From positions 1 to 64,000 of IMG/VR virus record IMGVR_UViG_3300021400_000136: DNA of 64,000 bases, one strand, 5' to 3'. This document shows, piece after piece, positions 14,942 to 33,328 of this stretch; position 1 is the first letter of the stretch, and each line of letters begins with the position of its first letter. The translations under genes were made by a program, and so were the position numbers. The notes beneath the pieces were generated by a model, which saw only the letters and a list, made by a program, of their open reading frames with translations, was not told where the DNA came from and did not search any database. The stretch comes from a virus. Lineage: Duplodnaviria; Caudoviricetes.

Positions 14942-17900
14942 ATGCCTGATTTAATAAAGAAGAGACAAGAGATGACTGACTCCGGTACGGGCGATGTTAC
15001 CCCGGTTAACGTACCGGCTCCAACTCCTATTCCTCCGGCCAGTTCGCAGGCGGCTGGAAGAGCAGCGGCTCAGGCAGCGGCATCCGACCCTAATAAGCAC
15101 GCCACCCAAGCCGGTAAAGAGACTAGCGATGAGACTAATAAAAAAATGGGCTGGGGCGACTACGCAGAACCTACACCCACTCCTGAGTCCACACCCGACT
15201 ATTCCGGTTATTCCGAACCTACACCCTCTGCTGAGGATCTTGCAGCAGAGAATGCAGATAGCTATGAGTACAATCAAGCTGGAGAGACTCCGACCGTCAA
15301 GGCTGATGTAGCTGATGATACTGTCGAGGTTGCTGTCGAACCCGAGAAGCAGGAGGAGACCAGTAGCCAGGTGTCTAAAGGCAAGGAAGATGCTACGGCA
15401 ATGGGCGGTGTCGATGCCACTAAGATGGCGGAAGACGCTGTTATGCAAGGCCGTAGGGATGCAAGATACTATCCAGACTATACTGACTTCTATGGCGGGC
15501 TTGAAATTGATGGTACATCTCCGGATCGTAATGAACTGGATGAAAACGGCATGCACATATTCAAAGGCTATGAGGACGATGAGGGCAATTATGTCTCTGG
15601 CTTTGATGAGTGGTACAGTTCTAACAAGGCCGGTCTTACAGAAATAATTGACTTCGCTACCGATGGACAATTCCATACAGGTGATGAAGTGTATGCCCAC
15701 CAGAAGCTTGCTGCTAACCTTGCCTATGACTACCAGACGATGGCAGATTACTGGCAAGGTCGTATTGACGAAGCTAAGGAGTTTGTTGACTCCGCTCATG
15801 CTGATTTCGATGCGTTCAATTTTGACCAGTATGGTGAAGCGGGAGAGGAAGCAAAAGCAACCTGGCAGCAGGAACTGGATACGTTGGATGCCCAGTATGC
15901 TTCCATGGTCGAGGGTCTTGGTATCATCCAGGAGCATGGGGAAGCGGCAAAAGAATGCTATGATCTCATGGTGGAGAATAACAAGGCTTTTGCTCAGTAC
16001 GATGACGATAAGCTTCTTACTCAGGAACAGATAGATCAGCAGGTGTTGGATGCGGCGAAGAGCGCGAATGTGGCAACTGCATTCACTGATGAGGAGATAG
16101 CAGATTTCACTAAGCTCACCGACGAGCAGTGGGACGCGCTAATCGAAAGCGGTGAAGAGAGCTATGATAAGCGCCAGTTTAAAGCGCCTCCGATACCTAT
16201 CTTCAGCACTGAAGCAACCAGAGAGGAGCAGAGACTGGCTGACCTGCAGATCATGCGACAGGCCATCCAAGGGGCTCGTGATGCGGCTCAGTACAAGAAC
16301 GATGAGATTATGTTTGGCCGTAAGTATATCGGGCAGGATAATACTATCGCAGCTTGGGATGCAGCGGAAGCAGCACTCGAAGCTAATGCCCCGACAGCAG
16401 ATTCTACTCCGGAAGAGAAGGCTGCATACAACCATGAGCGCCGGTATATTCAGGAGAGAATTGATGCCTGCGAGTATAAGGCTTTCGTTGACGAGTATGC
16501 CGATGTAAGTGATTCAGATATTCGTCAAGAGCTTTTTGAAATGCGGTTTGGTAATGGCGAAACTACGACAGAAGATAGCGCGGATACTAATGACACAGCG
16601 CATAATTTGTTGACGGCAAAATCTGCTTACGATGCAGCAGAAGAGGCCTTTAATGAAATCGCCGAAACTGCCCGTCCTACATCGGCTGAGTACCTTGATG
16701 CATACCAGGCAATGAAAGAAGCGGAAGCTGCATACGCCGAAGCACTTCAGCTCGCGAAGGATGAGTCAAAACTCGATGTCGGTGAGATCTTCGACTTTTC
16801 AGCCTTTGCAGATATCTTATCTGGGGCGCCAGAAGAAAATGAACTCAGCGCCGAAGAGCAGAAAAGAGCTGAGTATCTCCAAAGATTGCTTCAGGATCGA
16901 GAGATATCGGCTATACAAGAAGAAATTAAGAGCTACGAAAAGGACTACCCAGATGGGACTGCTATGCGGCATTGGGCAGAAGATATCGAGCTCGACGTAG
17001 AAAAGAAAGAAGCAGCACTTCTGGACGCGCAGACAGAAGCAGGTAAGCTGGATGCAGAGGCTTATCAATATGCTACTGTAGACGCGCATAGTACAGAAAA
17101 TCATACGCCGGAAGAGGCGGCACAGAAGGCCCAAGAAGCAAAAGACGCGCACAATAGAGCACTGATCGCGGAGCAGGAGCTTGCTGAGGCGAAAGGAAAA
17201 CTCGCTCTTGTGCAGGCGCTGAACCAGACCAGTATCCGATCCGAAGCAGACTATGCCGAGCAGGTTGCCAAAGGTAAAGAAATGGCTGGAGATATAGCCC
17301 AGTATAAAGAGGCTATCGATACGGCGATGGATGTTGGGCTCGATAGGAAGCCTGCGGTTGATGCTCTCGTCACTCAGTTCGGCCTTACCCAAGAGGACGC
17401 CGAGAAGTACGTGGATATGTACTTCACACTGGACGAAAAGGAGAGGGCAGTACTTTTCCCAAATGTAGATGGAGTTGAGGAAGAGGAACAAGGCTGGCTC
17501 GGAAAATGGTGGGACAAAGTTACAAGGTCTCCGTACCTTGGTGAAAAAGAAGTAGGCAAATTTACTGACGAAGAACTGAATGACTTTTACTACCATCTTG
17601 CTAAGGAAGGTGCATCAGCTGCAGCTCAATATGCGATGGGTGTAAATAATGCCTATCGTAACGAGTACAACGATCTGGCGAAAGAGCGTTTCATGCAGTT
17701 GCAGAACTACAGGGCAGGTCATAATGGCAAGTTCCAGACTGCTGTAGAAGCGGCGATGATGCCTGTAGGTAACTTTGCGCTGAATCTCACAGCCCTTCCG
17801 GAAGCTATCAGTAATTTTATCCAGGCAGAAAAACTTGGAATGTCTGTAGCTCCTACCGATCCGACAAACAGCCAGTTGGCTGAATGGGCGCAGGAAAGTT

Positions 17901-20900
17901 CCAGTAGACAAGTTACGGCTATGCTGCCGAACTTCAAACCGGCAGAGTTCCTTTATAATACTTATAACAGTATCGTTAACAGTGCTCTGTCACTGGCAAC
18001 ATTCTCAGCTCTTGGTAGCGCACTTGGCTTAACAGATGATATCGTTATCGGTGGTAAAGGTGCTTTACAGGCATTCGTATCAGCAGCTACAGATCTTGAA
18101 TTCTTCGGTTCAGCAGCAGCCAGTAGGTACAGAGAGTTGCTTGAGCAGGGAGTCGATCCGCAGAAAGCAGGATGGGCGTCAGTGTACTCCGGTCTTGCCG
18201 AGGCTATGTTCGAGCACTTCTCCATTGAGAACTTGTACCACGCAAAAGGTGTTGCTGATTGGCATAATGCACTGGATTGGGCGTGGCACACAGCGTGTTC
18301 TGCCGGTGTCGAAGGCTCTGAAGAATTGTTCACCAACTGGGCTAACCGACTTGGTGATGCCTTATACTTAAAAGAAGATAATCCTTTCAACGATAGTGTT
18401 GATGCCTATATAGCGCAGGGTTTTGAAGAAGATCAGGCTCTGCGTTTTGCTATGCACGATCTGCTGAAAGAGGATGCTCTGTCCTTCCTTGGTGGTGCTA
18501 TCTCCGGTGGTGTTAATGCCGGTAGTTCCAGCATGATGGAGTGGCAGATAGACAAAAATAAACTTGCAGATTTCCGCGCATCCCAAGGTAAGAACTTCAA
18601 CATTGATCTTCCAAACGGAAAGAAAGCCTCACAGGAACTGGGTACTTATCTGTGGAATCATGAGTTCATCAGACCCGGTGACGAACATCTCTTCAACGAG
18701 GGACAGCGCAATACTGTTGAAGAAATAAAAGATCTGGCGTGGAAAGCTAGTGAGGGTAAAGCTTCTGACGAAGAGATTGGCCGTTTGCAGTATCTCACGG
18801 CACAATTCGACAGTAAAGTACTTGATGATTTTGCTCTCGCTAACAAAGATTGGTATGGCCGTGTAGAACCGATGCGTCTGGTACAGGTATCCCAGGAAGC
18901 ACTTAATAAGCTCCTTGGTCCTGAGAACGCGCAGAAATATCTTGAGGCAGTAAGAGCTAATCCGCATGCAAAAGTGGAGAACGACTTCTCCTTAGGACTT
19001 CAGCAGGCCGTTCCAAATATGGGCAGTAATGAAGCATCGGAAGTTGCTGGATTCCTCGAAAGAATATTCACAGGCTCTGACAGAACAACACCTGAAGATA
19101 TAGCAAAGGTATTAGACTCCGAATTGCTCAGTTCTCCAGAGGCTCAGATGTATCTTTGGAATTATCTGAAGGATAAGGTACCGACAGATACTCCCGCTAT
19201 TGAAGTGGCTGCCCCGGCAGAACCGAGTGGGCTGACTCCTTCTGCTGAATGGGCTGGCCAGAATGTAAAGAGAGAACCTTCTCCGATTAAACCTGCCAGC
19301 CAGATGGAAACTGACTCTGGAACAGAGGCCGCAGATAGAGAGCCTACTCCTATTCCCTCTGCGGAACAGGCAGCGGAGAATGAGAAGAGTAGAGAAGAAG
19401 CTGAAGCCAAAGCACGGGAAGAAATACAGAATCCGTTTATTCCAATCATGCAGTCGATTGGCATGGATCCGAATATTACATCGGAGAATGTAGGCGAAGC
19501 CTTGAAGAACCTGCTCACAACAACCTGGGAGAGAGCAAAGGAAGCGGCATATCAGAATCAGATACTGAAGAACGGCTTATCTGATACTAATCGTAAGTTG
19601 AACGATATGCAGCATGAAGCAGCTGAACAGCAGACGAGAGACAGGCTTAACCGCGCCCCGAAAGGTATAAAGACCGATGCGTTGGCCCAGTACAGAGATG
19701 ACTCCGACTCCATTACTTTTGGTAATAATACCACTACCCGTAAGGAGTTCGTTGAAGCCTATATGAAGGGCTATGACCCGTTCAACGATAAGGAGATAAA
19801 GGGGCCGAAAGACGAGAAGGCAGCAAACCGTGCCTTTGACCGTATCCTATTGAACAGCACCACAAAGGATGGACTTCCTCTTGAAGGTGTTAAAGCCTCC
19901 ATGAAGAACTACGATCTTTCTTTGCGGAAGGCTATTGTTTCTGATACCAAAAAAGGAACTGGAGAGCCTAAAGACCTGGAACGCAATGGCGAACCAAAAG
20001 CGCAAGAGCCAGCATCCGGTAAGCTTAATGTTCAGACTCCAACAGATAATAGTGCTGATATGAAGGAAGGCACGGCCACCGGTACGGAAGTTACCAGAAA
20101 TGGTGAGCCTGACCAGACAGAGCCTACTGATAGTAAGCTTAATGTTCAGAATCCAACAGATGATAGTGCTGACATGAAGGACGGCACAGGTACTGGTACA
20201 GAAGTTACCAGAAAGGGTGAGCCCGAGCAGACAGAACCTACTGGCGGCAAGCTTAATGTCCAGACTCCGGCAGATACTAGCAGTGATACCACAACGGGCC
20301 AGACTTCTGTCGATGGCAGTGAGTTGTCCAGAACTGAAAAGCCTGCTGAAGAAACTCCGGTAGAAGATCAGACCACTGAAGAGGTAGCTCCAGATAAAGC
20401 GCAGCAGTTCCTTGACTATCTCCAAGTCATGATGCAGCAGACTGGCGAGATGACCGATGAGGAATTCAATGCCCTGTTTGGTGGTGCTACTGACACAATA
20501 CTCGACGCATTGGTTGGAAGAGAACCTGCTAATGATTTCGAGCGTAGAGTTATTGATGCTGCTACGCGGGAGATGGACAGGCGCACATCCGAAGACCAGA
20601 CTATGGCTCAACAGGACGAAGCTCCGGCATCAGCAGAAACTTCGGATTTCAAAACAGATGATAACCTCTTCGCAACTAATGGAAAAGAGGATAAGAGCTG
20701 GCGCAGCTGGGATGACACAATAAATAACCCCGACAGCAACGATGACGAGATTATAACCAGAGCAGAGTTTGTTGAACGCGCTATGAATGGCGTTGGCAAG
20801 ATTAAGCCGATGACTTTCGCCGAGGCAAATGACTTGTTCGATGACTTGGCTTATATCGACGAACATGATAGCGATACCAACACGGACTACGGTAAAAAAG

Positions 20901-23900
20901 GTAGCAACCCAATGTACTCTGCAGGTGGCGCATCCACTGGAGCATCTGTAGCTACTGGTAGTGAACTCAATATGAAGCCGGTTACGTACTCTGCTTCGGA
21001 TGTTCCCGGCCTTGTCGAGCTTGGCAGGACGAGCTATTCCCCCTCTAACCGTACTATTAGTTCCTCTGACCGTAGCTGGGGTGATGCAATCAGCAATGAG
21101 TACGGCAAGACCATTACTCGTGCAGAGTTCGTTGCAGCTGCTATGTCTGGACAGAATCTGTACTCCGGTACCAGGATGCCTACAATTTCCGGTGTTGCAG
21201 CTAACGATCTGTTCGATGATATTGTCGATAATAAGATTGCTTATGGCGGATATGCCGACAGAACCAATAACGGTTACAGTATAACAGACGCTACAGTTAC
21301 AGCGGATATGCTGAACGCTCCTGGTTTTGTCGGAGCTATGGCTAACACACTGGCTATCCTCGAAGCGGAAATGAGGTCGGCATCTGATACGAGCAATCAA
21401 AAACTCGCTCCGTTCATGAAGCGAGTAGATTTAGCACGTAAGCAACTTGAGGGCCTGCTTGGACGGAGTGTATCCGACGCGGCAACCGAAGTTACTGACG
21501 TACGAAATCAGATCAACACAAGACTTGCGGAGATTAATAACAGGCTTGAAGTACTGATGAGCCGGTCGGATCAGAACAAGATCGGCTATCTGGTAGACCT
21601 TAAAGAAATGTCCCAGCTCAGAGCAGAGCGTCAGAAGCTAATGACTCAGACGTTCAGACTTGGGCAGGCAGAAGCAAAGTACACGAAAGCTCTTGACCGT
21701 TTGAACTCGGCAAGAAACAGAATGTACTCTAATGATTATTATTCTTATATTGGAGGAAAATTATATGGCGGACCAGCGGGTACTCGTGGACTCACCGGCA
21801 GGAACAACGATGTGGCTCAGTCCAGAAGCGGCGGATCGGTTACAGGATCTGCCGGAGGATCAGCTCAGTCGGTACAAGGAAATGCAGGAACAGTCTCAGA
21901 GCAGACTTTTAAAACTGTTGAAGAAATACTATCCGCAGGAGGGCTGACACTCCGAGGCAAAGTACTATTCGATTCTGCCGGGATGTCCCCGCAGGAGATA
22001 GCAAATGCCAAGATCCCGTTGTCCCTTCGTAACAGCATACTCCACGCTATGCGTAATGGTGTTGGCCGTGTTGTACTTACTGACGGTGATCTGCTGAATG
22101 GTAAATCCTATATTAATGAAAAGGGTAAAGAAGTTGAGCAGACAGTCGGTGGATTCTATGACACTCTCATGGACGGTGGTACGGAAAGATCTGTTATTGT
22201 TCTGCACAAAGACAGCTTCACCGAAAAGAACATCCAACACGAATACATGCACCATATGCTCCGAAAGATGTCTGAGCGTCAGAAGCGCGGATTTCTTACC
22301 AGCGCTATCCGGACAATGTTTGGATCACGCCAGGATCTCTTCGAAGAACTGTTTGACTCCTACAAGATCGACTATGCAATTGCTCATGGCAGAGTGATCG
22401 ATGAGAACGGCAGAGTGGATGAAGATCTCGCATATATTATATATGAAGAGATGGTCGCCGACTTCTATGCAGGACTCAATCGATTCAAGACCCCCGAGAT
22501 GGCAGAAGCGATGGGGCCGCTCGTCAGGGAGATGCGTGTAAGCCTGTACAATTACTGTGAGAGACTTGGACTTGAGGACTACGCCAGATCAAAATGGATT
22601 AACAGAGAGTATACTCCTAAAGAAGGAACTCTGGACATCCGGAGAACCGGTAGAGCCACTGCGCCGTATGAGCAGCAGTTCAAAGAAAGAACTGAATCAG
22701 ACAACGAACTGGCAAAGGGCGAACACCGATTCAATCCAGAGCGAAATGCTTATGAGGCGCGATTTAGTTTGGCCAATACTATGGGTGGAATCTACGACAC
22801 ATATGGTGTGGACATTAATACTGCCGAGGATAGCAGACTTGACGAACTGGCGAGGCAAATCGACGAGGAGTACGAGGCAGCGCAAAAAGAGCAGGCTGAC
22901 ATTCGAAGCACATGGACGGATAAGGACTACGCAGATCTCACTCCCGATGAATATTGGGCCCGATATCATGAGTGGAATGAGCAGTCTGGCATTGACGCCG
23001 TAAAACGTCGCGTCGATACACTTGGGTCGTACAGTCGTGCAATCAGCAAAGAGAAAGCTTGGAGAGCGATAGACCCAGAGGCCCTTATTCAAAAGGCAAA
23101 AGATATCTACGGAACCACTGATGACTTCCGGAAATCTGGGTACATCCTGCCGGATGGAACGATGTTGGATATGTCCCAGGGTGCCAACAAGCGGACTCTG
23201 TTCCACCATGAGACCGCTCAAGAAGTTCTGTTCGCCTTGAAGTATCCGGCTTCAGACGCAATTGAAAAATTCGTAGGTCGTGGCGGGGCCATCAGAATCG
23301 ATGTAGACTCCGATGGTATTGATATCCCGCAAAGTGGCATGACCCCGGCTCAGTACGAAACCCTGCGCGACTTTCTTTCTGACTTCATAGCTACTGAAGA
23401 CTACGATAGAGCAGCATTCTATGTATCTACTTTTGGTAAGAACCTGGGAACGTCGGAGAGATTTAATCCTTCCAATACCACACAGATCTTAAACGCAATT
23501 CGCCAGTACTACGATACAGGTTCCTTCCCGAAACAGTCAACCACACAGCAGTTCTACGGTAGATATAGCCTGGCCAACACAGAAGCTGTATCTCTTGACG
23601 AACTTCAGACAGCTCGTGATGAGATGCTTGATCTGCGTCAGCAGCTCAGAGATCGTAAGGCTGATGTCGATGAGTGGAGCCGTAGAATTATGGCTGGTGA
23701 AGCTGAGATCGACGACTACAATAAGTGGCTGTCCGATAGCGGTTACAACAGACTCTACATGCAGGAACGTGAGGCAAGCAAACGGTATAACGACCTCAAC
23801 CGCGCTTATGACGAGCAGCAGGAGAGCGCGAATGCCGAAGCCGAGCAGAACGCAATAGAACAGTCCGGCTTATCCGAAGCAGATTACTTTGGCAAAGAAG

Positions 23901-26900
23901 CCGTAAAGGTATTTGGTTATACACCGTACTTCTATGACGCTGGGTACATTACTCCGAACGGACGGATGCTGAACTTCTCCGGTGAGAAAGGTAAGCACTA
24001 TGGCTCTCGAGGCCAGGATCACCGGAGCATAGGCCAGATCTTTGCGGTAACTTCCGGCACAGAAGCCATGAACAGGTTTATCAGCTATGGTAATATCCGC
24101 ATTATGGCAGAGGCTCCAGGCCTGGATATCAGCGCGAATATCGAACCGACAGCAGAGCAGTACTCTAGGATCCGTGACTTCGCAAGGAGCGCACGGGATG
24201 AGGACTACTTCAGTATCGATATCACGGGCGAAGATGGTAGGGTCATTGATACAATCGAGTACGAAAGCGTCAACCCAGCGAAGATAGTAAACGATCTGAA
24301 GAACTACTACCGTACTGGTGAAGTACCGCAGCAGTCTGTTACTGCGCAGTTCCATGCTAGCTTTAGCCTTGTTGGCGTTTCAGATGATGGTATGGAGGTA
24401 TACGAAACCTCTCAAGCCGTAAAAGATATGACCAGGGAAGAACGTATGGACGCTTTCGAAGCACGAATGGCTAACGAGTTCAGAGGCCGTACCGCTAGAT
24501 TCGAAAGAAACGGTCATATCTACTATGCTAAGTTCGATAGTACTGGCGTTTCTAAAAATATCTATGGGGACGACAAGTCTGATCAGTCCGGATGGAGAGC
24601 CAAGATAAGAGCCGGAGCAGATGGCGATATCTTTGATCTGATAGAGAATTCTACTTATAATGGCAGCAGCGCAGAAAAGAGTGGAAAAAAAGGTAAGGCC
24701 CATAACAAGACCCAACGCTGGGACTACTTCATAAAGAAGGTCCAGATCGATGGTATTGTGTATGACCTCACTGCAAATGTAAGACGTAAAAACGATGACT
24801 TCGTTTATAATATCCAGCTTAACCGGGATATTAATACAAAACCGGCGACGTCTTACAGCCCACTCCCGAAGGCGGGTTTTAACCAAGACATCGCCGGTAC
24901 AGATAATGTATCACAAAACGGCTCAACTGTCAAGTACAGTAAGCAGGAACATCCGAATGCTAGGTACAGCCTGTGCGCATTTGAAGACGGCACAAAGTTC
25001 GTAAACGTCGAAACAGATCAAGAACAGTTTGATGGACTAACGGATAAAGAAAAGCGCGACTTAGCAGAAAAAATAATAAAAGAGCGGTTCTCCGGGAGAA
25101 TAATCGGTGAGACGAACAAAGCCTTCGTCAATAGCCAGACTGCAAGAGAGTATGCTTATCCGTCAAAACGCCTTACAGATAGTGGGGTACTTGACGCTAA
25201 GATGAGGGCGTCAACCGAACTAGATAATCTACTGGAGGCCGGTAGTAATTTTAGGACGGCACCTGATGGGGCTGACGGGCATACACACCCAGACGCCGTA
25301 GGAGGATTCACTTATTTTGACACGCTGTTTAAAGTAGGTGAGGAATTCTATAAAGGTCTTGTCAATATTAAGAATAATGCCAAGGGCGCTCTTCTAGTAG
25401 ATATTACAAAAATAGAAAACGTCACTAAGGACACATACAACTCATACGGAAAAAATCCGAAGTTCGTATTCCTTAATGACGTTTCTAATGATATTAAATC
25501 ACAGAATAACCCGAATGTCAAGAACCAAAATGAATCTGAGCCGAGCTACTCCATCGCTGTCTCCGATCCCGATACGTTGGACTTCCTTAACGACCAACTC
25601 GAGAACGGGGATGTAGTTTACACCTACAAATCCTTCCTTGAGTACGAAGACGAGAATGGAGATCCGTATCTAATTGCTCCTATGGCTGGTGTGCAGAAAG
25701 ACGAGACGGGCAAGAAGAGCCAGTCGCATGCCCTTCGTCCAGGTGTGTGGGAAGAGTCTGTTGGTAATCCCAACTCTAAGAGCCTCGGTAAGAAAGTCAA
25801 TGACAAGACCGGTGAAGTATCCTGGACTTATGGACTTGAGAAGAGTGACGTAGATGGTTCTGTTGTACCGGCTGCATATAACCCGTATCAGCACTCCAGT
25901 GATGTAGTTCTCAATGACCAGTTCTCCATTGCGTACAAACGTCCAAACCTGGTAACGTATATGTGCGCTATTCCTAAGAGTGAACTGACCAGTGGCTATC
26001 ACTTTGGTGTAACCGATCCTGAGAAGGCAACTCGTTCTGACGGCGATATTGTTACCGCAAAAGACGCGGTTGGTATGCACGACTGGAAGAGCGGTTCCCT
26101 AGCAAGCCAGTTAGAAAACACACAAAGACATGTGTATCTTTCTCGGTGGCTCATGCCGGTACGTAAGCTGTCCAACATAGAAGTTGCTCAGCAGTACAAG
26201 GAGATCCTCGATAGGGAAGCACCCGGTCTTGGTGTGCCATTCAATGTTGTACCTTCCGGTTTGCTCTCAGCTCTTCAGGAAGTTGGCGTTCCAATTGACC
26301 TTACTGGTACAGGACTATCTGAAGCCAACTACAGAAAATATCTTTCTGAAGTAAACGCTGCTCGTGAAGAGGCAGGTCTTGAACCGTTCCCGTACTCTTA
26401 TCAGACTAAAGCCGAAAGAGATGCCGCAAAGAAAGAACGGAAGAACGCTTCCAAACGGTTCTCGATCTCTGGAGACAACCTTGATAATCTTGACGATCTT
26501 CTGATGGATTATGATCTTTCGGATCTCGGAAGAATAGTTTCTGACACATTTGGTTCTACCTTTGAAACAGAAGAGGACGAAATGCCTCCTGAACTTCCGT
26601 ACGAACAACAGCGTCCTAGAAGATCTGTAGAGAACCCGACTCACAATCCAACTGCTTATCTGAAACCAGAAACACTAAATGCATGGCTGTCCGGAAGGGG
26701 CTTTGCCGATACAGGTAACCCGAACTATGCGCAGGCTTACATCGGATGGATGAATCCAGAGGACTTCCTATACTTGACAACCTCTACCTATGATTACGAG
26801 GACAATAGAGTAAGGGCGGAAGGATACTACGGTGATCTGGAAGATATCTCTAGCAGGGCGCAACGTGGAAGAGAAGCCGATACAATTCATCTTTCAATTG

Positions 26901-29900
26901 ATTCTGAAACAGGAAGAGTATACGGGCATGAAGGGCGCCATCGTATGGCCTACCTGCAAAGCCTTGGTGTGGAGAGAGTCCCTGTTCTTTTCTTTGACAG
27001 CGGAAATAAGTATGATAAGGAAATAATGGAGGACTATACTCTATCTGGAGAGCAGAGGCCAGGGAAGAAAGTTACTCTCGATAATCCTCTGATCCCTCTC
27101 AGCAATGGGTACAGAGGGCTTGTCGAGAACGAGTTCGTTAAAGGCGAAGAGCAAGACAACGATCTTCAGACAGCGCGATTTTCCATCACGGACGATTCGA
27201 ATGCCGATGGCTATACTCTGTCAGATATTGATTCCACAGGAAGAGAATTGACGGACGAGCAGTATTACTACTTCCGCAATTCGAAAGTAGTGGACGAAGA
27301 TGGGCATTTAATTCCGCTTTACCATGGAACGAATGCATTCGGCTTTACCGAGATAGACTTCGATAAAGCAGACGATGGAATATCCTTCTTCCTCACGGAT
27401 AGTCCAGAAGTGGCCGGGTCCTATACAAGGAACAATACTGTCCGATCCTTATTTGATAAGCAAAGACAGCGGCGGGCGATTGATGTATCAAAGCTTTCGG
27501 ATGAAGATCTAGCTTCGCTGTTTTCCCAAGTTAGTATACCGTACTTCGAATCAGCTACCGTATCGAAATTTGAGGATGTACTCAGAACCTTCACAGGCCC
27601 ATTGAACGCCGCAAAAATGCGATACGCCAGTTTCTTTGAAGAAGAACTGTTACCGTCCAGAGAAGATCTTGGCCTTACTGAAACGGACTTAGCCTTCTAC
27701 GACGCGCTGAAAGGCAACAGCACTAGTGTCGAAAGCATCATAGATTTGCTTGATAGAGCAGATAAATTCTATTATAGCCTTCGCAAAAAGATATGGGATA
27801 CCGACGAAAGCTATATTTGGGACGAAATGCGATCGCTGCAACCGCAATTACAAACCGCAGCTTCTCAGGCACAAAGATTTCTGGCTGACCATAATTCTGC
27901 TGGAGTATCTTTGGAGGATAATGTTTTTATTACGGATCCAGGTAGCAAGAATTTCTACACGAGAGAGCAAATCGAGAGACTTACTGGCAGAAGACAAGAG
28001 GAAGAAGAGCTCGGAAGGAACTCTGCCGGTATTTACAAGGGGTACGCAAATCTAACAAATCCATTTATTGTTGATGCAAATGGAGCTGAATGGAATCAGA
28101 TTCCGGTCGATCAAGAAGTAGTAGACTATCTAAAAGCACTTAATTCGCCAGAGTTCTACGTCTCAGAATGGGCAGAAGACGGAGAGGTTAAAACAAGGGG
28201 AATAGCTAAGTACGCAAAGGATCACGGATATGACGGCGCTATAATTAGAAACTGTGTTGACATCGGAGAGTATAAGCGTTCCTACGACTACGAAGCGTAT
28301 TCTACTCCGGCAACTCTGGTGCTATGCTTTGAACAGAATCAGTTCAAAGACTATAGAAATACAGAACCTACTGATGGCATTGATTTAAGATTTTCTATTG
28401 CCGATACCTATGACGCCTTTGGAGATGAAATCGATGTCCAAGATGGAACAGTTCTGAATGCAACCAAGTCCACACTTTCTGATCAGCTTTTCTATTCTGA
28501 AGACGGTAATACCGCCTACTACCAGCTCGACTCTGGTGAGACGGTGGTTATGGAGAACGTAGGGGAAGACTCTCCCGAAGCACGATACATTAATTTCTTG
28601 GAGGCAACGAACAATGCCAACAGTACTGACACAACCACAGCAAAACCTTATACGATACCTCCTGCAACTCGGTATGAATCTGATGGATATAATATCGGTG
28701 AATCGAATGATGGCCTACGACGAGGAGCGGAAGAAGTTCCTTCGGCGAATCAAGAAGGAACACTTCGACGTGCAGGAAGTAATGGAGAACGCAATGAACA
28801 GAGTCAACCGCAGAGTGAAGAGGCGGAAGGTGTAAGGTTCTCTGCCACTATCCCGACAGCTGACGACCCGAACCATCCGACAGCCTTCGTCAACCAGAAC
28901 GGCGATGTGGTTACCACTGCTGAAGCTTACCCGTACGGATCTATGGAGCGCATGATCATCGAGGCATGGAACACTGGTGACTTCAGATCTATTGAGGACC
29001 AGATTAACGAAATGCTCGATATCGGCCACGCCAGAGATGAAGTCTTCGATATGATGGAAGAGATCGCTGCACAGCCTCTGGGGCTTACTCCTCAGGAGCG
29101 CGACGCAGTCTACAGACAGATCGAAGAGATGCGTGTACGGTATGGAACGATGCCGTCGGCGAATGTTACGAAGCGGGATGTACATTTCCCAGTAGCTACA
29201 GACGACGACACCAAACTGATGAAGGGCGCACAGACCCATGCACAGGAGGCCGAGACCGAGTGGCTGTCTGAAGAGATCATGGCAGAAGCACTCCGTAACG
29301 AGATTCTCTCCTATGTCCCTGCATCTAATAAGTCCTCCATCGAAAAAGCGGAAGACTATATCAAAGCGAAGAAAGGTAATTACGAAGAGATCGCAAGAGA
29401 TGTCCACGCTTGGCTGGCATCCGGAGAGCGTGTCAAACCGTGGCAGGTAGCAGTCGGCGAACTCCTTCTTAAAGAGGTAGAAACCGAAGGCAGAGCAGAC
29501 CTCGCTATGTCTCTCGTAATAGACCTTACTCTTATGGCCCATGAAACCGGACAGGCTCTGCAAGCTTTCGCTATTCTCCGGAAGGCGACTCCGCGTGGAC
29601 AGCTCTACTATCTGCAAGGTGTTGTTAACCAACTGAATAAAAAGTATGAGAAACAGATCCGAGAAGGGAAGATGGGCAAGATCGAACTTCCGCAGGATGC
29701 TGCGCAGAGAATGCTCGCATGCGAAACACGGCAGGAACTGAATGACGTAGTCGAGGAAATAAAGGACGAGATCGCGAAAAAGATTCCTGTATCATGGGCT
29801 GATCGCTGGAACGCATGGAGATACCTGGCTATGTTGGGTAACCCCAGAACACACGTTCGTAACATGCTTGGTAACGGCCTGTTCCGTCCCGCCGTATTTA

Positions 29901-32900
29901 TCAAAGACGTTATCTCCAGAAGACTGGAGGATATAGCAAGTAGGCACGGCAAGCTGGAAGGTAGGTCTCGTATAGCAGGAGCGAATCTGAAATCCGATAC
30001 GGAATGGATGCGCTATGCCAACGAAGACTATGAGGAAATGTACAAGATCCTTGTAGGCGAGGCAACCGGTAATAAGTATGCTGATGCCAACGACATCCTC
30101 TCCAGACGAGATCTCTGGGGTAAAGACAAGTGGCTCGGTGGTAAGTTCCTTGCATGGGCAGACCGTAAGAACAGCGACTTACTTACTAAGGAAGATGCTA
30201 CATTCCTAAAGAAGTACTACACCAGAGCGTTTGCAGAATTCCTGCAGGCGAGGGGTGTAACGGAAGAAGATCTCCGTGATAAGAAGTTTGGCGCTACCAA
30301 GGCAAATAAGAAGCTCATCAACGAAGCAAGAGCATGGGCAACAATCGAGGCTCAGAGGAATACCTACCGTGATGCCAATGCAGTAGCTTCCTGGCTTAAC
30401 TCCATGAAGCGTCAGGGTACTGTTCCTTACACAATCCTCGAAGGTGTTGTTCCGTTCACCAAGACCCCGATGAACATCCTTGCCCGTGGTATTGAGTACT
30501 CTCCGATTGGACTGATTCAGAGCGTACGGCAACTGGCTAAAGATCTTCGTAGTCCGAGCGAGATGACCACCAGCCAAGCGCTGGATAGACTCGCTGCCGG
30601 TATGACCGGTACGATGATCGTTGGCCTCGGCCTGTTCCTCACTGCTATGGGCTGGCTCCGTGGAAGTGGTGGAGATGATGATAAGAAGAAAGAGTTCGAA
30701 GAGCTCATGGGTCATCAGGCATGGTCTCTTGAACTGTTTGGCTACAGCTACACCATCGACTGGATGGCACCGGCTGCACTGCCACTCTTCATTGGCTCCG
30801 CTATCTACGATATGCTGGCGACAGAAAGGGAAGAGGAGCTCGGCTTCGAAGATATCGTCAAGGCACTGCTTGGTATAGCGGATCCTCTCAGCCAGTTGTC
30901 CATGCTGGATGGTATCTCTACTATGCTCTCCAACCTGGCGGATGCACAGGGGACGGAACAATTCTCCGTATTACTCTGGACTGCACTGACAAGCTATGTT
31001 GGACAGGGTATGCCTACACTCCTTGGGCAGGTAGCTAGAACATTCGATCCGGATAGACGGTCAACGTATATCCAGCCGGGTAGCAAAAACCCGATGCTGC
31101 AGCGGTTTATCCAGTCCTCCATACAGGCTAAGATCCCGGGTTGGGAGAACCAGAAGATGCGGTATGTGGATAACTGGGGTAGAACAGACTCAGCCAATAC
31201 ACCTTGGGAGAAATTCCTAAAGGGCGTTGAGAACTTCCTTTCACCGGGTTATCTGAACAAGATCGAGACCTCCGCTGTTGAGGACGAGCTGATGAGGCTG
31301 TACGAAGCAACCGGAGATAAGAACATTCTGCCAGACAGAATGGGTAAGTACTTCCAGGTTGACGGAGAACGGAAGAACCTCACAGCAGATGAGTACGAGC
31401 AATTGCTCACGGAAAAAGGACAGATGCACTATAACCTTCTGAACGAGGTTATGTCCTCTGAGTATTACGCTTCTCTGACTGATGAACAAAAGGCAAAGCT
31501 GCTCCTCAACGCTGGAGAATTCTCAAAGAACTACGGCAAGCAGATGGTAGATCCAGAGTTCGATATGGACAGCCACTGGATGGATGTAGCAAGGGCAATA
31601 GGCCCCGCCGATTATCTGATGATCCAGGATGATCTTTCCCACAACAGGACTCATGACCAGCTGTTCACCTACCTTGTATCCAATCCGAATCTCAGCTACG
31701 ATCAGATCGCATATCTCATCGCTGATGAATATGCCGCTCCGGACAAGATTCCCAGTGTCGGTAACAACGGCTACAACTATGAGATCACTGAGGAAGATGA
31801 GGCAGCGATGCAGGAGATCTTCAAAGATCTGGTACATACGCGCCTTGCTGAATTAGAGACTGATCCCAGGTATGTTGCAGGCGATGAGTACAAGAAGGGC
31901 GATATGATGGACAACCTCTATAATGAAATTAAAGAGGATGTCAAAACAATATACGCCGAACAGCTCGATGCATCCGACCGTCCGATGGTACTTGGAAAGG
32001 CATCTTCTGTAGGAACCGAGTCCTTTAATATGGTACTCGATCTTACACGTAACGAGATCGAAGGAGAGTACAGGGATGACATCGCAGCACAGGCTGGATG
32101 GTTAAGCCAGAAGTACCGGGCTGACTCCCAGATCAGTAACCCCGATAGAGACGGCTGGGATATCAAGCTCAGTGCTGATGACAAGGACGAGCTGTATGAT
32201 GAATTCCAGAAAGCTTGGGAGCCTGCATACAGAAAGATGCTTACTGAAGATCCTGAGTTCCGCAACGCCACAAGCCGAGCATATCAGGATAAGATGATAG
32301 CATCCTTGTTCAATGAAGTTTCCCAGCAGGTAGAAGATGCATACGCTTCTAAACTGTACAAGTCCGGTAAGGCTGATGAAGTCATCGGCGATCCGAAGGG
32401 GACGGCAAAGAAAGACTGGCTGAAGAACTATGAGATTGCCAACGAAGCCTACACCAATCCTAAGGATCAGGCAGCGTGGTTAGCAAAGAGATTTACCGGT
32501 GCTACCACTTTGGACAACCCCGACAGACCTGGGTACAATATCAAGACGAGCGATGCACAGCAGGCTCAACTTGCTCAGATCGAACAGGATAGATTCACTG
32601 CCGAATATGAAGCAATGAAGAAAGATCCGAAGTTCAAGAGCATGACACCGGAAGAGCAGGCTATCCAGACATACCAGCTGGCGCAGAACATCATGGATGT
32701 CGAAGAGGCCAAATACTCCAGATATCTGCTGGATAGAGGCGCAAAGATCGAACAGGCAATCGATACTCAGTGCACGAATTCTGAATACTTCAATATGGTA
32801 TTCTCAGAAGATCTCACTGATAGCGAACGGTACGACCTGATCGAACAACGCTATGACAGATATGTTGGTAAGAGTATTCTCAATAACTCCCTCGACTACC

Positions 32901-33328
32901 TCCAGCAGCACCAACGTGTCGGGTACTACATGGACTACGTACGTGAGAACATGTATAAAGTCGCTGGACTTACCGGAGCAGAGGAAGCAGAAGCTTATAT
33001 CAAGAAGATCCATGAACCGGCGATGAAGGCATCCGGAAATGCGATCAAGGCAGACTATAATTTAGCCAAGACCACGGCGGAGGCAGATGACGCGGCAAAG
33101 ATAGCAGCCGGATATAACTACGGTATGCATCTCGGAACGGATCTGAATACTGTGGCGCCTAACACTACACCGGCGGAGGCTTCGGTAAGACCGAGGAACG
33201 GATATGTTATACCTCCTGCGGCTACAGAGAATACGCCAGAAACAAAACAAAGAACCAACTCTGGACTCGTGATCCCGACAGCTAACGAAGCTGTACAGGA
33301 CGCATTCAAGTACAGAAGGTTCTGGTAA
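14942..33328 (+). CDS. Giant polyvalent (virion-injected) protein, 6128 aa: zincin peptidase, duplicated unknown domain, two LPD3/BECR-like domains, ParB-like, ART-PolyVal-like, C-terminal LPD38-like
   Basis: GGAGG RBS and an uninterrupted 18.4-kb ORF. HEYMH (22238-22252) with downstream EEMVAD; H..F/W.YF..I/V.G..Y..NI/V motifs (24360-25550); GHEGRHR (about 26924); YHGT (27320)..FFLTDS..GYDG; C-terminal WLRGSG..WSLELFG.SYTIDW.AP. Confidence 0.85.
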   Translation: MPDLIKKRQEMTDSGTGDVTPVNVPAPTPIPPASSQAAGRAAAQAAASDPNKHATQAGKETSDETNKKMGWGDYAEPTPTPESTPDYSGYSEPTPSAEDLAAENADSYEYNQAGETPTVKADVADDTVEVAVEPEKQEETSSQVSKGKEDATAMGGVDATKMAEDAVMQGRRDARYYPDYTDFYGGLEIDGTSPDRNELDENGMHIFKGYEDDEGNYVSGFDEWYSSNKAGLTEIIDFATDGQFHTGDEVYAHQKLAANLAYDYQTMADYWQGRIDEAKEFVDSAHADFDAFNFDQYGEAGEEAKATWQQELDTLDAQYASMVEGLGIIQEHGEAAKECYDLMVENNKAFAQYDDDKLLTQEQIDQQVLDAAKSANVATAFTDEEIADFTKLTDEQWDALIESGEESYDKRQFKAPPIPIFSTEATREEQRLADLQIMRQAIQGARDAAQYKNDEIMFGRKYIGQDNTIAAWDAAEAALEANAPTADSTPEEKAAYNHERRYIQERIDACEYKAFVDEYADVSDSDIRQELFEMRFGNGETTTEDSADTNDTAHNLLTAKSAYDAAEEAFNEIAETARPTSAEYLDAYQAMKEAEAAYAEALQLAKDESKLDVGEIFDFSAFADILSGAPEENELSAEEQKRAEYLQRLLQDREISAIQEEIKSYEKDYPDGTAMRHWAEDIELDVEKKEAALLDAQTEAGKLDAEAYQYATVDAHSTENHTPEEAAQKAQEAKDAHNRALIAEQELAEAKGKLALVQALNQTSIRSEADYAEQVAKGKEMAGDIAQYKEAIDTAMDVGLDRKPAVDALVTQFGLTQEDAEKYVDMYFTLDEKERAVLFPNVDGVEEEEQGWLGKWWDKVTRSPYLGEKEVGKFTDEELNDFYYHLAKEGASAAAQYAMGVNNAYRNEYNDLAKERFMQLQNYRAGHNGKFQTAVEAAMMPVGNFALNLTALPEAISNFIQAEKLGMSVAPTDPTNSQLAEWAQESSSRQVTAMLPNFKPAEFLYNTYNSIVNSALSLATFSALGSALGLTDDIVIGGKGALQAFVSAATDLEFFGSAAASRYRELLEQGVDPQKAGWASVYSGLAEAMFEHFSIENLYHAKGVADWHNALDWAWHTACSAGVEGSEELFTNWANRLGDALYLKEDNPFNDSVDAYIAQGFEEDQALRFAMHDLLKEDALSFLGGAISGGVNAGSSSMMEWQIDKNKLADFRASQGKNFNIDLPNGKKASQELGTYLWNHEFIRPGDEHLFNEGQRNTVEEIKDLAWKASEGKASDEEIGRLQYLTAQFDSKVLDDFALANKDWYGRVEPMRLVQVSQEALNKLLGPENAQKYLEAVRANPHAKVENDFSLGLQQAVPNMGSNEASEVAGFLERIFTGSDRTTPEDIAKVLDSELLSSPEAQMYLWNYLKDKVPTDTPAIEVAAPAEPSGLTPSAEWAGQNVKREPSPIKPASQMETDSGTEAADREPTPIPSAEQAAENEKSREEAEAKAREEIQNPFIPIMQSIGMDPNITSENVGEALKNLLTTTWERAKEAAYQNQILKNGLSDTNRKLNDMQHEAAEQQTRDRLNRAPKGIKTDALAQYRDDSDSITFGNNTTTRKEFVEAYMKGYDPFNDKEIKGPKDEKAANRAFDRILLNSTTKDGLPLEGVKASMKNYDLSLRKAIVSDTKKGTGEPKDLERNGEPKAQEPASGKLNVQTPTDNSADMKEGTATGTEVTRNGEPDQTEPTDSKLNVQNPTDDSADMKDGTGTGTEVTRKGEPEQTEPTGGKLNVQTPADTSSDTTTGQTSVDGSELSRTEKPAEETPVEDQTTEEVAPDKAQQFLDYLQVMMQQTGEMTDEEFNALFGGATDTILDALVGREPANDFERRVIDAATREMDRRTSEDQTMAQQDEAPASAETSDFKTDDNLFATNGKEDKSWRSWDDTINNPDSNDDEIITRAEFVERAMNGVGKIKPMTFAEANDLFDDLAYIDEHDSDTNTDYGKKGSNPMYSAGGASTGASVATGSELNMKPVTYSASDVPGLVELGRTSYSPSNRTISSSDRSWGDAISNEYGKTITRAEFVAAAMSGQNLYSGTRMPTISGVAANDLFDDIVDNKIAYGGYADRTNNGYSITDATVTADMLNAPGFVGAMANTLAILEAEMRSASDTSNQKLAPFMKRVDLARKQLEGLLGRSVSDAATEVTDVRNQINTRLAEINNRLEVLMSRSDQNKIGYLVDLKEMSQLRAERQKLMTQTFRLGQAEAKYTKALDRLNSARNRMYSNDYYSYIGGKLYGGPAGTRGLTGRNNDVAQSRSGGSVTGSAGGSAQSVQGNAGTVSEQTFKTVEEILSAGGLTLRGKVLFDSAGMSPQEIANAKIPLSLRNSILHAMRNGVGRVVLTDGDLLNGKSYINEKGKEVEQTVGGFYDTLMDGGTERSVIVLHKDSFTEKNIQHEYMHHMLRKMSERQKRGFLTSAIRTMFGSRQDLFEELFDSYKIDYAIAHGRVIDENGRVDEDLAYIIYEEMVADFYAGLNRFKTPEMAEAMGPLVREMRVSLYNYCERLGLEDYARSKWINREYTPKEGTLDIRRTGRATAPYEQQFKERTESDNELAKGEHRFNPERNAYEARFSLANTMGGIYDTYGVDINTAEDSRLDELARQIDEEYEAAQKEQADIRSTWTDKDYADLTPDEYWARYHEWNEQSGIDAVKRRVDTLGSYSRAISKEKAWRAIDPEALIQKAKDIYGTTDDFRKSGYILPDGTMLDMSQGANKRTLFHHETAQEVLFALKYPASDAIEKFVGRGGAIRIDVDSDGIDIPQSGMTPAQYETLRDFLSDFIATEDYDRAAFYVSTFGKNLGTSERFNPSNTTQILNAIRQYYDTGSFPKQSTTQQFYGRYSLANTEAVSLDELQTARDEMLDLRQQLRDRKADVDEWSRRIMAGEAEIDDYNKWLSDSGYNRLYMQEREASKRYNDLNRAYDEQQESANAEAEQNAIEQSGLSEADYFGKEAVKVFGYTPYFYDAGYITPNGRMLNFSGEKGKHYGSRGQDHRSIGQIFAVTSGTEAMNRFISYGNIRIMAEAPGLDISANIEPTAEQYSRIRDFARSARDEDYFSIDITGEDGRVIDTIEYESVNPAKIVNDLKNYYRTGEVPQQSVTAQFHASFSLVGVSDDGMEVYETSQAVKDMTREERMDAFEARMANEFRGRTARFERNGHIYYAKFDSTGVSKNIYGDDKSDQSGWRAKIRAGADGDIFDLIENSTYNGSSAEKSGKKGKAHNKTQRWDYFIKKVQIDGIVYDLTANVRRKNDDFVYNIQLNRDINTKPATSYSPLPKAGFNQDIAGTDNVSQNGSTVKYSKQEHPNARYSLCAFEDGTKFVNVETDQEQFDGLTDKEKRDLAEKIIKERFSGRIIGETNKAFVNSQTAREYAYPSKRLTDSGVLDAKMRASTELDNLLEAGSNFRTAPDGADGHTHPDAVGGFTYFDTLFKVGEEFYKGLVNIKNNAKGALLVDITKIENVTKDTYNSYGKNPKFVFLNDVSNDIKSQNNPNVKNQNESEPSYSIAVSDPDTLDFLNDQLENGDVVYTYKSFLEYEDENGDPYLIAPMAGVQKDETGKKSQSHALRPGVWEESVGNPNSKSLGKKVNDKTGEVSWTYGLEKSDVDGSVVPAAYNPYQHSSDVVLNDQFSIAYKRPNLVTYMCAIPKSELTSGYHFGVTDPEKATRSDGDIVTAKDAVGMHDWKSGSLASQLENTQRHVYLSRWLMPVRKLSNIEVAQQYKEILDREAPGLGVPFNVVPSGLLSALQEVGVPIDLTGTGLSEANYRKYLSEVNAAREEAGLEPFPYSYQTKAERDAAKKERKNASKRFSISGDNLDNLDDLLMDYDLSDLGRIVSDTFGSTFETEEDEMPPELPYEQQRPRRSVENPTHNPTAYLKPETLNAWLSGRGFADTGNPNYAQAYIGWMNPEDFLYLTTSTYDYEDNRVRAEGYYGDLEDISSRAQRGREADTIHLSIDSETGRVYGHEGRHRMAYLQSLGVERVPVLFFDSGNKYDKEIMEDYTLSGEQRPGKKVTLDNPLIPLSNGYRGLVENEFVKGEEQDNDLQTARFSITDDSNADGYTLSDIDSTGRELTDEQYYYFRNSKVVDEDGHLIPLYHGTNAFGFTEIDFDKADDGISFFLTDSPEVAGSYTRNNTVRSLFDKQRQRRAIDVSKLSDEDLASLFSQVSIPYFESATVSKFEDVLRTFTGPLNAAKMRYASFFEEELLPSREDLGLTETDLAFYDALKGNSTSVESIIDLLDRADKFYYSLRKKIWDTDESYIWDEMRSLQPQLQTAASQAQRFLADHNSAGVSLEDNVFITDPGSKNFYTREQIERLTGRRQEEEELGRNSAGIYKGYANLTNPFIVDANGAEWNQIPVDQEVVDYLKALNSPEFYVSEWAEDGEVKTRGIAKYAKDHGYDGAIIRNCVDIGEYKRSYDYEAYSTPATLVLCFEQNQFKDYRNTEPTDGIDLRFSIADTYDAFGDEIDVQDGTVLNATKSTLSDQLFYSEDGNTAYYQLDSGETVVMENVGEDSPEARYINFLEATNNANSTDTTTAKPYTIPPATRYESDGYNIGESNDGLRRGAEEVPSANQEGTLRRAGSNGERNEQSQPQSEEAEGVRFSATIPTADDPNHPTAFVNQNGDVVTTAEAYPYGSMERMIIEAWNTGDFRSIEDQINEMLDIGHARDEVFDMMEEIAAQPLGLTPQERDAVYRQIEEMRVRYGTMPSANVTKRDVHFPVATDDDTKLMKGAQTHAQEAETEWLSEEIMAEALRNEILSYVPASNKSSIEKAEDYIKAKKGNYEEIARDVHAWLASGERVKPWQVAVGELLLKEVETEGRADLAMSLVIDLTLMAHETGQALQAFAILRKATPRGQLYYLQGVVNQLNKKYEKQIREGKMGKIELPQDAAQRMLACETRQELNDVVEEIKDEIAKKIPVSWADRWNAWRYLAMLGNPRTHVRNMLGNGLFRPAVFIKDVISRRLEDIASRHGKLEGRSRIAGANLKSDTEWMRYANEDYEEMYKILVGEATGNKYADANDILSRRDLWGKDKWLGGKFLAWADRKNSDLLTKEDATFLKKYYTRAFAEFLQARGVTEEDLRDKKFGATKANKKLINEARAWATIEAQRNTYRDANAVASWLNSMKRQGTVPYTILEGVVPFTKTPMNILARGIEYSPIGLIQSVRQLAKDLRSPSEMTTSQALDRLAAGMTGTMIVGLGLFLTAMGWLRGSGGDDDKKKEFEELMGHQAWSLELFGYSYTIDWMAPAALPLFIGSAIYDMLATEREEELGFEDIVKALLGIADPLSQLSMLDGISTMLSNLADAQGTEQFSVLLWTALTSYVGQGMPTLLGQVARTFDPDRRSTYIQPGSKNPMLQRFIQSSIQAKIPGWENQKMRYVDNWGRTDSANTPWEKFLKGVENFLSPGYLNKIETSAVEDELMRLYEATGDKNILPDRMGKYFQVDGERKNLTADEYEQLLTEKGQMHYNLLNEVMSSEYYASLTDEQKAKLLLNAGEFSKNYGKQMVDPEFDMDSHWMDVARAIGPADYLMIQDDLSHNRTHDQLFTYLVSNPNLSYDQIAYLIADEYAAPDKIPSVGNNGYNYEITEEDEAAMQEIFKDLVHTRLAELETDPRYVAGDEYKKGDMMDNLYNEIKEDVKTIYAEQLDASDRPMVLGKASSVGTESFNMVLDLTRNEIEGEYRDDIAAQAGWLSQKYRADSQISNPDRDGWDIKLSADDKDELYDEFQKAWEPAYRKMLTEDPEFRNATSRAYQDKMIASLFNEVSQQVEDAYASKLYKSGKADEVIGDPKGTAKKDWLKNYEIANEAYTNPKDQAAWLAKRFTGATTLDNPDRPGYNIKTSDAQQAQLAQIEQDRFTAEYEAMKKDPKFKSMTPEEQAIQTYQLAQNIMDVEEAKYSRYLLDRGAKIEQAIDTQCTNSEYFNMVFSEDLTDSERYDLIEQRYDRYVGKSILNNSLDYLQQHQRVGYYMDYVRENMYKVAGLTGAEEAEAYIKKIHEPAMKASGNAIKADYNLAKTTAEADDAAKIAAGYNYGMHLGTDLNTVAPNTTPAEASVRPRNGYVIPPAATENTPETKQRTNSGLVIPTANEAVQDAFKYRRFW
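19966..20285 (+). repeat. In-frame 120-nt tandem repeat (about 3 copies) in giant gene
   Basis: GEPxxxEPxxxKLNVQxPxDxSADMKxGTxTGTEVTR repeated; AAGCTTAATGT recurs at 120-nt spacing. Confidence 0.85.
21765..21947 (+). CDS. Nested +1-frame small protein (60 aa) inside the giant gene
   Basis: GGAGG (21752-21756), 8-nt spacer, ATG; MADQRVLVDSPAGTTMWLSPEAADRL...KKYYPQEG. The host frame turns into G/S/R/A-rich filler over exactly this span. Confidence 0.65.
   Translation: MADQRVLVDSPAGTTMWLSPEAADRLQDLPEDQLSRYKEMQEQSQSRLLKLLKKYYPQEG
24838..24898 (-). ncRNA. Candidate antisense small RNA 1 (closed 14-bp stem, inner C(UUCG)G hairpin)
   Basis: ACCGGCGAUGUCUU / AAGACGUCGCCGGU pairs fully on the - strand (U.G) but has a C-A mismatch on +. 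It starts 7 nt after a -10 box and ends in UUUU. Confidence 0.6.
24905..24933 (-). promoter_or_regulatory. Antisense sigma70/sigmaA promoter inside giant gene (TTGACA-N17-TACATT, extended TG)
   Basis: -35 at 24928-24933, -10 at 24905-24910, TGn present. Confidence 0.7.
25408..25486 (-). ncRNA. Candidate antisense small RNA 2 (closed 16-bp stem)
   Basis: GAAACGUCAUUAAGGA / UCCUUAGUGACGUUUU pairs fully on - (wobbles become mismatches on +). It starts 7 nt after the -10 box, is followed by UUUUU and contains CUUCGG. Confidence 0.6.
25493..25521 (-). promoter_or_regulatory. Antisense sigma70/sigmaA promoter inside giant gene (TTGACA-N17-TTTAAT, extended TG)
   Basis: -35 at 25516-25521, -10 at 25493-25498, TGn present. 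Confidence 0.7.
28614..28835 (+). CDS. Nested +1-frame small helical protein (73 aa) inside the giant gene
   Basis: GGAGG (28600-28604), 9-nt spacer, ATG; MPTVLTQPQQNLIRYLLQLGMNLMDIISVNRMM... The stop coincides with the next RFS linker motif, and the host frame is G/R/S/E filler here. Confidence 0.65.
   Translation: MPTVLTQPQQNLIRYLLQLGMNLMDIISVNRMMAYDEERKKFLRRIKKEHFDVQEVMENAMNRVNRRVKRRKV

Follow-up and report, generated by a model that had tools for sequence, protein, structure and literature searches.

Several described systems place a small gene within the coding region of another. In phage lambda, Rz and the embedded Rz1 share a strand; Rz1 uses the +1 frame, has its own start, and occupies a mutationally silent flexible linker of its host, so that no base is heavily constrained by both frames, and the products of both genes form a complex (PMC5295617, PMC6139136). 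In Bacillus subtilis, the small regulator gene comS lies in a distinct frame of the giant multimodular gene srfAB (PMC12915044). Overprinted overlapping genes of viruses encode orphan proteins of a narrow clade in the alternative frame of an older gene, with one of the two frames being disordered (PMC8227390, PMC3494269). The polyvalent proteins of phages and conjugative elements have been described by their domain architectures only, with zero occurrences of the words “overlapping” and “frameshift” in the respective text (Iyer et al. 2017, PMC5512222). Here, we analyzed a 64,000-nucleotide (nt) stretch of the Caudoviricetes record IMGVR_UViG_3300021400_000136 (positions 1 to 64,000; in the following, the window), in which an open reading frame (ORF) of 73 codons is nested in the gene of a giant polyvalent protein. 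Based on comparison with its relatives, this ORF (28614-28835) is very probably a genuine protein-coding gene, nested out of frame on the same strand and provided with its own initiation.

The nested ORF comprises 73 sense codons on the + strand, from the ATG at 28614 to the TAA at 28833-28835, and lies in the +1 frame relative to the surrounding ORF (14942-33328), covering amino acids (aa) 4558-4632 of the giant protein, P0002. An earlier prediction from the DNA alone (the original prediction) had noted a GGAGG motif 9 nt ahead of an ATG, a frame shared with the ORF at 21765, and a stop overlapping the next R-F-S motif of the main frame. Re-examination confirmed the Shine-Dalgarno (SD) motif at 28600-28604, followed by the 9-nt spacer (CAACGAACA) and the ATG; the offset is the same as that of the 21732/21765 ORF, and the nested TAA shares bases with the main-frame codons GTA-AGG, representing V-R of G-V-R-F-S. 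The statement that the ORF fills one linker module exactly had to be corrected, as the ORF occupies no more than the C-terminal half of the module, which is bounded by RFS motifs at 28388-28396 and 28835-28843. The N-terminal half of this module is constrained in the giant frame (YDAFGDE...TAYYQ...GETVV...LEA), and the C-terminal half, hosting the nested gene, reads in the giant frame as an acidic linker with an isoelectric point (pI) of 4.45 and 6 hydrophobic residues out of 74.

Within the +1 frame of the giant gene, 12 stop-free runs of at least 90 codons are found. In 15-45% of trials, the +1 frame survives random synonymous recoding of the giant-frame peptide without acquiring a stop, a high chance level owed to the scarcity of hydrophobic residues in this part of the giant protein. 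Unlike the length of the ORF, its ribosome-binding site exceeds chance, as an arrangement of GGAGG-N5-11-ATG is present at only two sites of the 18.4-kb gene, 21752 and 28600; GGAGG-type sites are common in the phage, and the giant gene itself starts with GGAGG and a 9-nt spacer. Neither promoters nor terminators were detected when 28000-29300 was scanned. The other site belongs to a second +1-frame ORF of the giant gene (21732-21947, GGAGG at 21752), 71 aa long from its first ATG, the product of which has no visible similarity to the 73-aa peptide.

A region search yielded eight giant homologs with sizes of 5.1-7.8 thousand aa and 38-50% identity. In their alignment, the low-complexity-looking stretch under the nested ORF turned out to be the best-conserved part of its neighbourhood. 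Relatives on DNA level were collected by a degenerate giant-frame pattern located upstream of the ORF (TAYYQ...GETVV), matching the loci L004, L006, L003/L005, L007, and L008 (three IMG/VR contigs and two metagenome contigs), and by a main-frame protein search, which contributed P0015 (locus L011) and P0017 (L012). Locus L009 and the partial L010 were found with the peptide profile and are hence biased by their route of discovery. The position of the ATG, the number of 73 codons, and the position of the stop are the same in all seven relatives found by giant-frame criteria (7/7); L009 keeps all three as well, and L010 agrees for its partial stretch. The stop codon itself varies between TAA, TGA, and TAG in a fixed column, and the main-frame RFS motif follows 0-2 codons later. 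Not a single indel was observed within the 74 codons, and indels begin again directly 3' of the nested stop. Sense frames 0 and +1 are the only ones open in all nine sequences; each of the antisense frames is interrupted by stops in the majority. Loss of the frame among relatives had been named beforehand as a finding that would speak against the hidden gene; the +1 frame is intact in all relatives whose DNA was read. Four further relatives are available as protein only (P0008, P0009, P0010, and P0016); their giant-frame residues are compatible with 66-71 of the 73 peptide columns, compared with 16 columns on average and 31 at most for control segments.

The distribution of variation over codon positions was evaluated in a codon alignment of six sequences, which was used for position counts and Fisher tests. 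Inside the ORF (74 codons), 40, 25, and 13 columns vary at giant-frame codon positions 1, 2, and 3, respectively, compared with 33, 29, and 59 in the upstream flank (66 codons) and 246, 191, and 310 in the downstream flank (329 codons). This depletion at the third giant-frame position is highly significant against both the upstream (p = 1e-18) and the downstream flank (p = 4e-42), and the counts obtained from nine sequences follow the same order (48/31/22). Read in the +1 frame, the variability decreases from position 3 over position 1 to position 2, i.e., the normal pattern of a coding sequence. In a sliding scan, third positions of the giant frame were frozen only over the nested ORF and its leader of ~37 nt, with the freeze beginning ~10 codons before the ATG, while elsewhere 25-30 out of 30 third positions vary. 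Pairwise ratios of nonsynonymous to synonymous substitution rates (dN/dS) over the bases of the ORF range from 0.11 to 0.27 in the +1 frame versus 0.87 to 4.5 in the giant frame; in the upstream flank the giant frame has values of 0.13-0.27, with synonymous differences near saturation (proportion of synonymous differences, pS, 0.4-0.96). On peptide level, 20% of the +1-frame positions differ with a mean BLOSUM62 score of +0.46, and 38% of the giant-frame positions over the ORF differ with a mean of -0.42. The conservation pattern across species lies far beyond chance, and within these 222 nt selection acts mainly on the nested frame, with the giant frame being merely kept open and free of indels. 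Together, the conserved start, stop, and length, the purifying selection in the +1 frame, and the conserved SD motif lend strong support to the claimed hidden gene.

Conservation extends to the signals for initiation. The sequence TGGAGG is invariant in 9/9 sequences; its Leu codon is TTG in eight of the nine, though TTG accounts for 9% of the Leu codons in the gene, and its Glu codon is GAG throughout (9/9). Likewise, the first two bases of the ATG come from an Asn codon that reads AAT in 9/9 sequences, with AAT and AAC being equally used in the gene. Further codons of the leader (GAA GCA, TAC, AAT, TTG GAG GC) are conserved in 8-9 of the nine sequences, and the ~37 nt are frozen although the +1 frame carries stops there in relatives. 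Independent, SD-led initiation on the mRNA of the giant gene is the best-supported route suggested by these comparisons. As judged from the sequence, the nested gene would be transcribed on the late mRNA of the giant gene, and translation would start independently at the ATG at 28614, driven by the GGAGG 9 nt upstream.

The host gene is a phage polyvalent protein gene, uniting several conflict-related effector domains in one polypeptide. P0002 consists of a conserved N-terminal block, an array of shuffled cargo (peptidase motif, LPD3, ParB-like, ART-PolyVal), and a conserved C-terminal block; the matches to ART-PolyVal (PF18760) and LPD3 (PF18798) pass the Pfam cut-offs. ART-PolyVal, including an insertion, extends to ~28380 by homology, since residues 4096-4497 of the query align to the ART regions of P0003 and P0008. 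BLASTP of P0002 revealed a single collinear block in 8/8 homologs, reaching from residue ~4443-4507 to ~6040-6100, and the module with the nested ORF represents the first part of this block in all eight giant homologs. The region ~1400-4480 of P0002, in turn, is composed of cassettes shuffled among homologs. Of six loci scanned, the window and L008 are the only ones with ART-PolyVal upstream of the nested ORF; the preceding 600-1200 aa gave no match to this domain in the other four (L004, L006, L007, and L003), although their nested ORF is complete with an identity of 79-86%. Pfam gave no ART match whatsoever for P0006 and P0007, and the ART-like region of P0005 is located ~2300 aa from the nested-ORF segment. 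P0015 is a complete version of 2510 aa that is devoid of the N-terminal block and retains the module, the nested ORF, and the C-terminal block. In more distant relatives of the C-terminal block (L013-L031), homology starts at ~aa 4716 without the module, and no homolog of the peptide was found in any frame of these loci, mostly contigs of Oscillospiraceae, Ruminococcaceae, and other Clostridia. By its distribution, the nested gene is specific to one clade and linked to the module opening the C-terminal block (~1600 aa), not to ART or any other cargo domain, and a role as antidote of ART is not supported.

Three other explanations were weighed against a separately initiated gene. Programmed +1 frameshifting would yield a truncated giant protein, consisting of the N-terminal block and cargo, with a basic helical tail of 73 aa, and GGAGG would then serve as stimulator instead of a ribosome-binding site. 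The nested ORF does end exactly at a domain boundary, and its leader is conserved at nucleotide level. Moreover, frameshifting is known to be stimulated by SD-like internal sequences, dnaX and prfB being examples, and is also used for the tail chaperones (G/GT) of phages. However, no slippery motif was found around AAC AAT GCC, and a stop in the +1 frame two codons upstream of the ATG in L006, L003, L009, and L011 leaves only ~2 codons for a shift. Maintenance of the ATG in all nine sequences through the choice of the AAT codon would not be expected either, and the 9-nt spacing equals that of the start of the giant gene and of other genes of this phage, whereas +1 shifts are stimulated by a short SD spacing. 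The invariant SD motif and ATG, the preceding stops, and the missing slippery site in favor of separate initiation thus render frameshifting very unlikely. A further alternative is the absence of a second gene, in which case a nucleotide element (RNA structure, recombination or packaging site) or a constrained giant-frame peptide would account for the conservation and the +1 frame would be open by chance. The level of openness under recoding, the many other long +1 runs of the gene, and a fairly conserved giant-frame peptide are in line with this possibility, as is a small hairpin able to pair the SD with the ATG region. In the consensus fold of the start region, this hairpin is a weak one of 7 bp (28598-28623, -6.6 kcal/mol), in which GGC(A), belonging to the SD region, base-pairs to (T)GCC at the start codon; all its columns are invariant and therefore provide no covariation. 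Variation with a 3-nt periodicity phased to the +1 frame is predicted neither by an RNA or DNA element nor by giant-frame coding or an antisense gene. In addition, replacements are conservative in the +1 frame (dN/dS ~0.2) but frequent and radical in the giant frame, the stop keeps its column with changing codons, and the frozen zone ends exactly at the nested stop, where indels resume. We regard this explanation as highly improbable. The antisense candidate, a minus-strand ORF of 305 aa (28715-29632) that extends over the 3' part of the nested gene and has the same wobble phase, was rejected due to antisense stops in most relatives.

The third alternative concerns function and was favored by the original prediction, which had proposed an antitoxin or regulator of ART or of a neighbouring domain. 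An immunity protein would shield the producing cell from ART-PolyVal until the giant protein is packaged. Its appeal comes from the window itself, where the nested ORF starts ~80 codons after the ART domain and a small product is co-transcribed with a potentially toxic enzyme domain, an arrangement with ART-PolyVal upstream that recurs in L008. This claim is not supported, given the four of six loci combining an intact ORF with the lack of ART-PolyVal upstream and the situation of P0005, P0006, and P0007 described above. Furthermore, the shuffling of the cargo contrasts with a nearly invariant peptide, and no antitoxin or immunity family matches the latter. An ART antitoxin can hence be regarded as most improbable, while the protein may be a regulator of the C-terminal block as the neighbouring domain.

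In agreement with the helical product announced by the original prediction, the separately initiated gene would encode a basic protein with four predicted helices (residues 7-18, 23-32, 36-49, and 53-72 in an AlphaFold2 (AF2) model) and 27 hydrophobic residues out of 73. Its pI is 10.7 for the copy of the window and 9.7-11.2 among all copies, with 14-16 Lys and Arg residues; residues 34-50 and the basic C-terminus are invariant among relatives. The profile search described below gave three matches, one of which is a spurious match to a Sel1 repeat. P0011 is a 73-aa protein in the same nested context on a metagenome contig of 754 bp (L009), known as gene prediction only. P0012 stems from a metagenome contig of 706 bp (L010), the 5' part of which is a gene for a DUF969 membrane protein: in L010:1-706, the 5' end of DUF969 and AT-rich, promoter-like DNA are followed by the final 55 codons of the nested gene, so that the contig is most likely chimerically assembled. 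Neither tblastn against GenBank phages, which gave no relatives, nor the profile search provided the stand-alone homologue proposed as a check, and a protein search for longer matches with the 151-aa module found nothing.

Several observations weigh against the reading as a nested gene. Length and openness of the ORF alone do not exceed chance, given the 15-45% expected, and the number of independent lineages is modest, comprising eight unbiased sequences and two that were obtained by means of the peptide profile. Confidence in the AF2 model is no more than moderate, the mean predicted local distance difference test (pLDDT) score being 68. No function can be derived from the database searches: Pfam, PHROGs, NCBIfam, and the ESM Atlas contain no significant match to the peptide, the profile search of 1.84 billion representative proteins gave no stand-alone homolog, and the AF2 model had no match above background when its fold was searched with PDB Foldseek, VIA wide, and BFVD. 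Rows pointing to a helix-turn-helix, MerR-like or ParB-like DNA-binding protein were weak: MerR-family chains reached Z 5.2-4.2 at a root-mean-square deviation of 7-9 A (best fold match, Z 5.2 at 7 A), Foldseek gave E above 1, and a PDB sequence-profile search pointed to P1 ParB with an E of 0.058 over 33 residues, which is to be taken as a lead, not as evidence. The weights given to individual functions below are inferred only.

Table 1. Features of the giant gene and its nested gene (window positions)
Feature	Position	Strand	Basis or remark
Polyvalent-protein gene, 6128 aa (P0002)	14942..33328	+	ORF list, translation, Pfam, BLASTP vs eight giant homologs
ART-PolyVal, N-terminal Pfam match	27293..27436	+	P0002 aa 4118-4165
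Conserved C-terminal block, aa ~4481-6100	28382..33240	+	Collinear in eight giant homologs
Main-frame R-F-S motif opening the module	28388..28396	+	Translation
Main-frame module between two RFS motifs	28397..28834	+	
Leader of the nested gene	28577..28613	+	Giant-frame synonymous sites nearly frozen
Shine-Dalgarno GGAGG	28600..28604	+	9 nt before ATG
Putative nested +1-frame gene, 73-aa basic protein, four predicted helices (P0001)	28614..28835	+	
Main-frame R-F-S boundary motif	28835..28843	+	First codon overlaps last base of nested stop

Besides the giant gene, the window (a virus record) carries genes for tail fibre, endolysin, integrase, primase/helicase, and DNA polymerase. The stretch 28397-28612 (YDAFGDE...TAYYQ...GETVV...PEA.YIN.LEA) is a small conserved domain under normal giant-frame selection, which is always found upstream of the nested gene and could not be assigned to any family. 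The C-terminal block (28838-33240) contains an invariant WNAWRYLAMLGN.RTH.RN motif as well as hydrophobic helix-like segments and has no Pfam or PHROG match; AF2 prediction of its first 650 aa (five sequences) resulted in a pLDDT of 48, too poor for a fold search. The giant gene is not always a single ORF, as the contig of P0016 has a 3849-aa ORF and, after it, a 2633-aa ORF with the module and the C-terminal block, and the genes of P0015 and P0017 are of 2.4-2.5 thousand aa with unrelated genes upstream. Cargo cassettes can be near-identical between giant proteins that are otherwise 38-45% identical, and at different positions of the proteins: 25526-26473 of the window (P0002 aa 3529-3844) is 94% identical to P0005 aa 5406-5731, and 22748-24373 (P0002 aa 2603-3144) is 89% identical in P0006/P0007. 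This suggests a recent exchange by recombination. Relatives of the C-terminal block (L015-L031) are located on contigs of Oscillospiraceae, Ruminococcaceae, Lachnospiraceae, and other Clostridia, with distant carriers including prophage-like loci in Massiliimalia timonensis, Lawsonibacter celer, and contigs of Gemmiger spp., suggesting that this group of phages infects gut Clostridia.

In terms of function, two roles share the first place, each at clearly less than an even chance. By analogy to Rz1 and Rz, the protein may be a co-expressed partner of the C-terminal block, e.g., a co-factor of assembly, packaging, or delivery; with the same weight, it may be a small nucleic-acid-binding protein. 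Some other role is somewhat less probable, and an ART antidote is hardly to be expected. Combining these considerations, we tentatively envisage a broader picture, which is itself more doubtful than probable: the inter-domain linkers of giant polyvalent-protein genes in phages of gut Clostridia could provide coding space for independently translated small genes, the +1 ORF with its GGAGG at 21752 being the second one in this gene, and the 73-aa protein could be an obligatory co-factor of the C-terminal block, e.g., a chaperone or a packaging or delivery adaptor kept in cis with its client, like Rz1 with Rz. The linker possibly arose from a gene fusion reading through an older small gene; selection dominated by the nested frame rather than by that of the 6128-aa protein would then be accounted for.

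The finding is of relevance beyond this locus. Genes within long ORFs escape annotation pipelines altogether; with a strongly selected small protein hidden in an 18-kb phage gene, as the comparison indicates, a conserved component is missing from descriptions of polyvalent proteins (PMC5512222). A linker of a giant protein that looks disordered may be conserved owing to its other frame, which matters for domain annotation and for dN/dS scans. The start codon can be knocked out by a change silent in the giant frame, offering a testable handle on the conserved C-terminal block, while one supposed built-in antidote is dropped from the story of ART toxins.

Comparison with the described systems reveals a resemblance to Rz1 and Rz, since a nested gene likewise occupies a hydrophobic-poor linker of its host, with the nested frame carrying the constraint here. 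The complex formed by the products of Rz and Rz1 is also the reason for the partner hypothesis raised for the 73-aa protein. In contrast to Rz1, there is no sequence or fold similarity, and the protein is devoid of a lipobox, signal sequence, or transmembrane segment; together with a presumably Gram-positive host of the phage, this indicates that it is not a spanin. Furthermore, the host is an 18-kb multidomain effector gene instead of a lysis gene, and the interaction with the giant protein is putative. Similarly, comS is small, has its own start, and is co-transcribed with the giant gene hosting it in a Firmicute. ComS comprises 46 aa and acts on the MecA/ClpCP-ComK pathway. It differs in having no similarity to the 73-aa peptide, in a function unrelated to its host protein, and in that srfAB encodes a bacterial nonribosomal peptide synthetase, not a virion or effector protein of a phage. 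P0002 fits the polyvalent proteins as a tailed-phage giant with ART-PolyVal and LPD3, shuffled cargo, and a location beside late genes, whereas genes nested in linkers are outside the concept described so far (PMC5512222). With overprinted viral genes, the locus shares an orphan protein in an alternative frame, without homologs outside a narrow clade. The roles of the frames are distinct, as here the frame of the host is disordered and weakly constrained and the nested one is structured and strongly constrained. Origin by overprinting and origin from a linker that read through an older small gene at the fusion of two genes are equally compatible with the data. The nested gene represents a known kind, i.e., a gene nested out of frame, while its orphan protein family and the class of its host gene are new.

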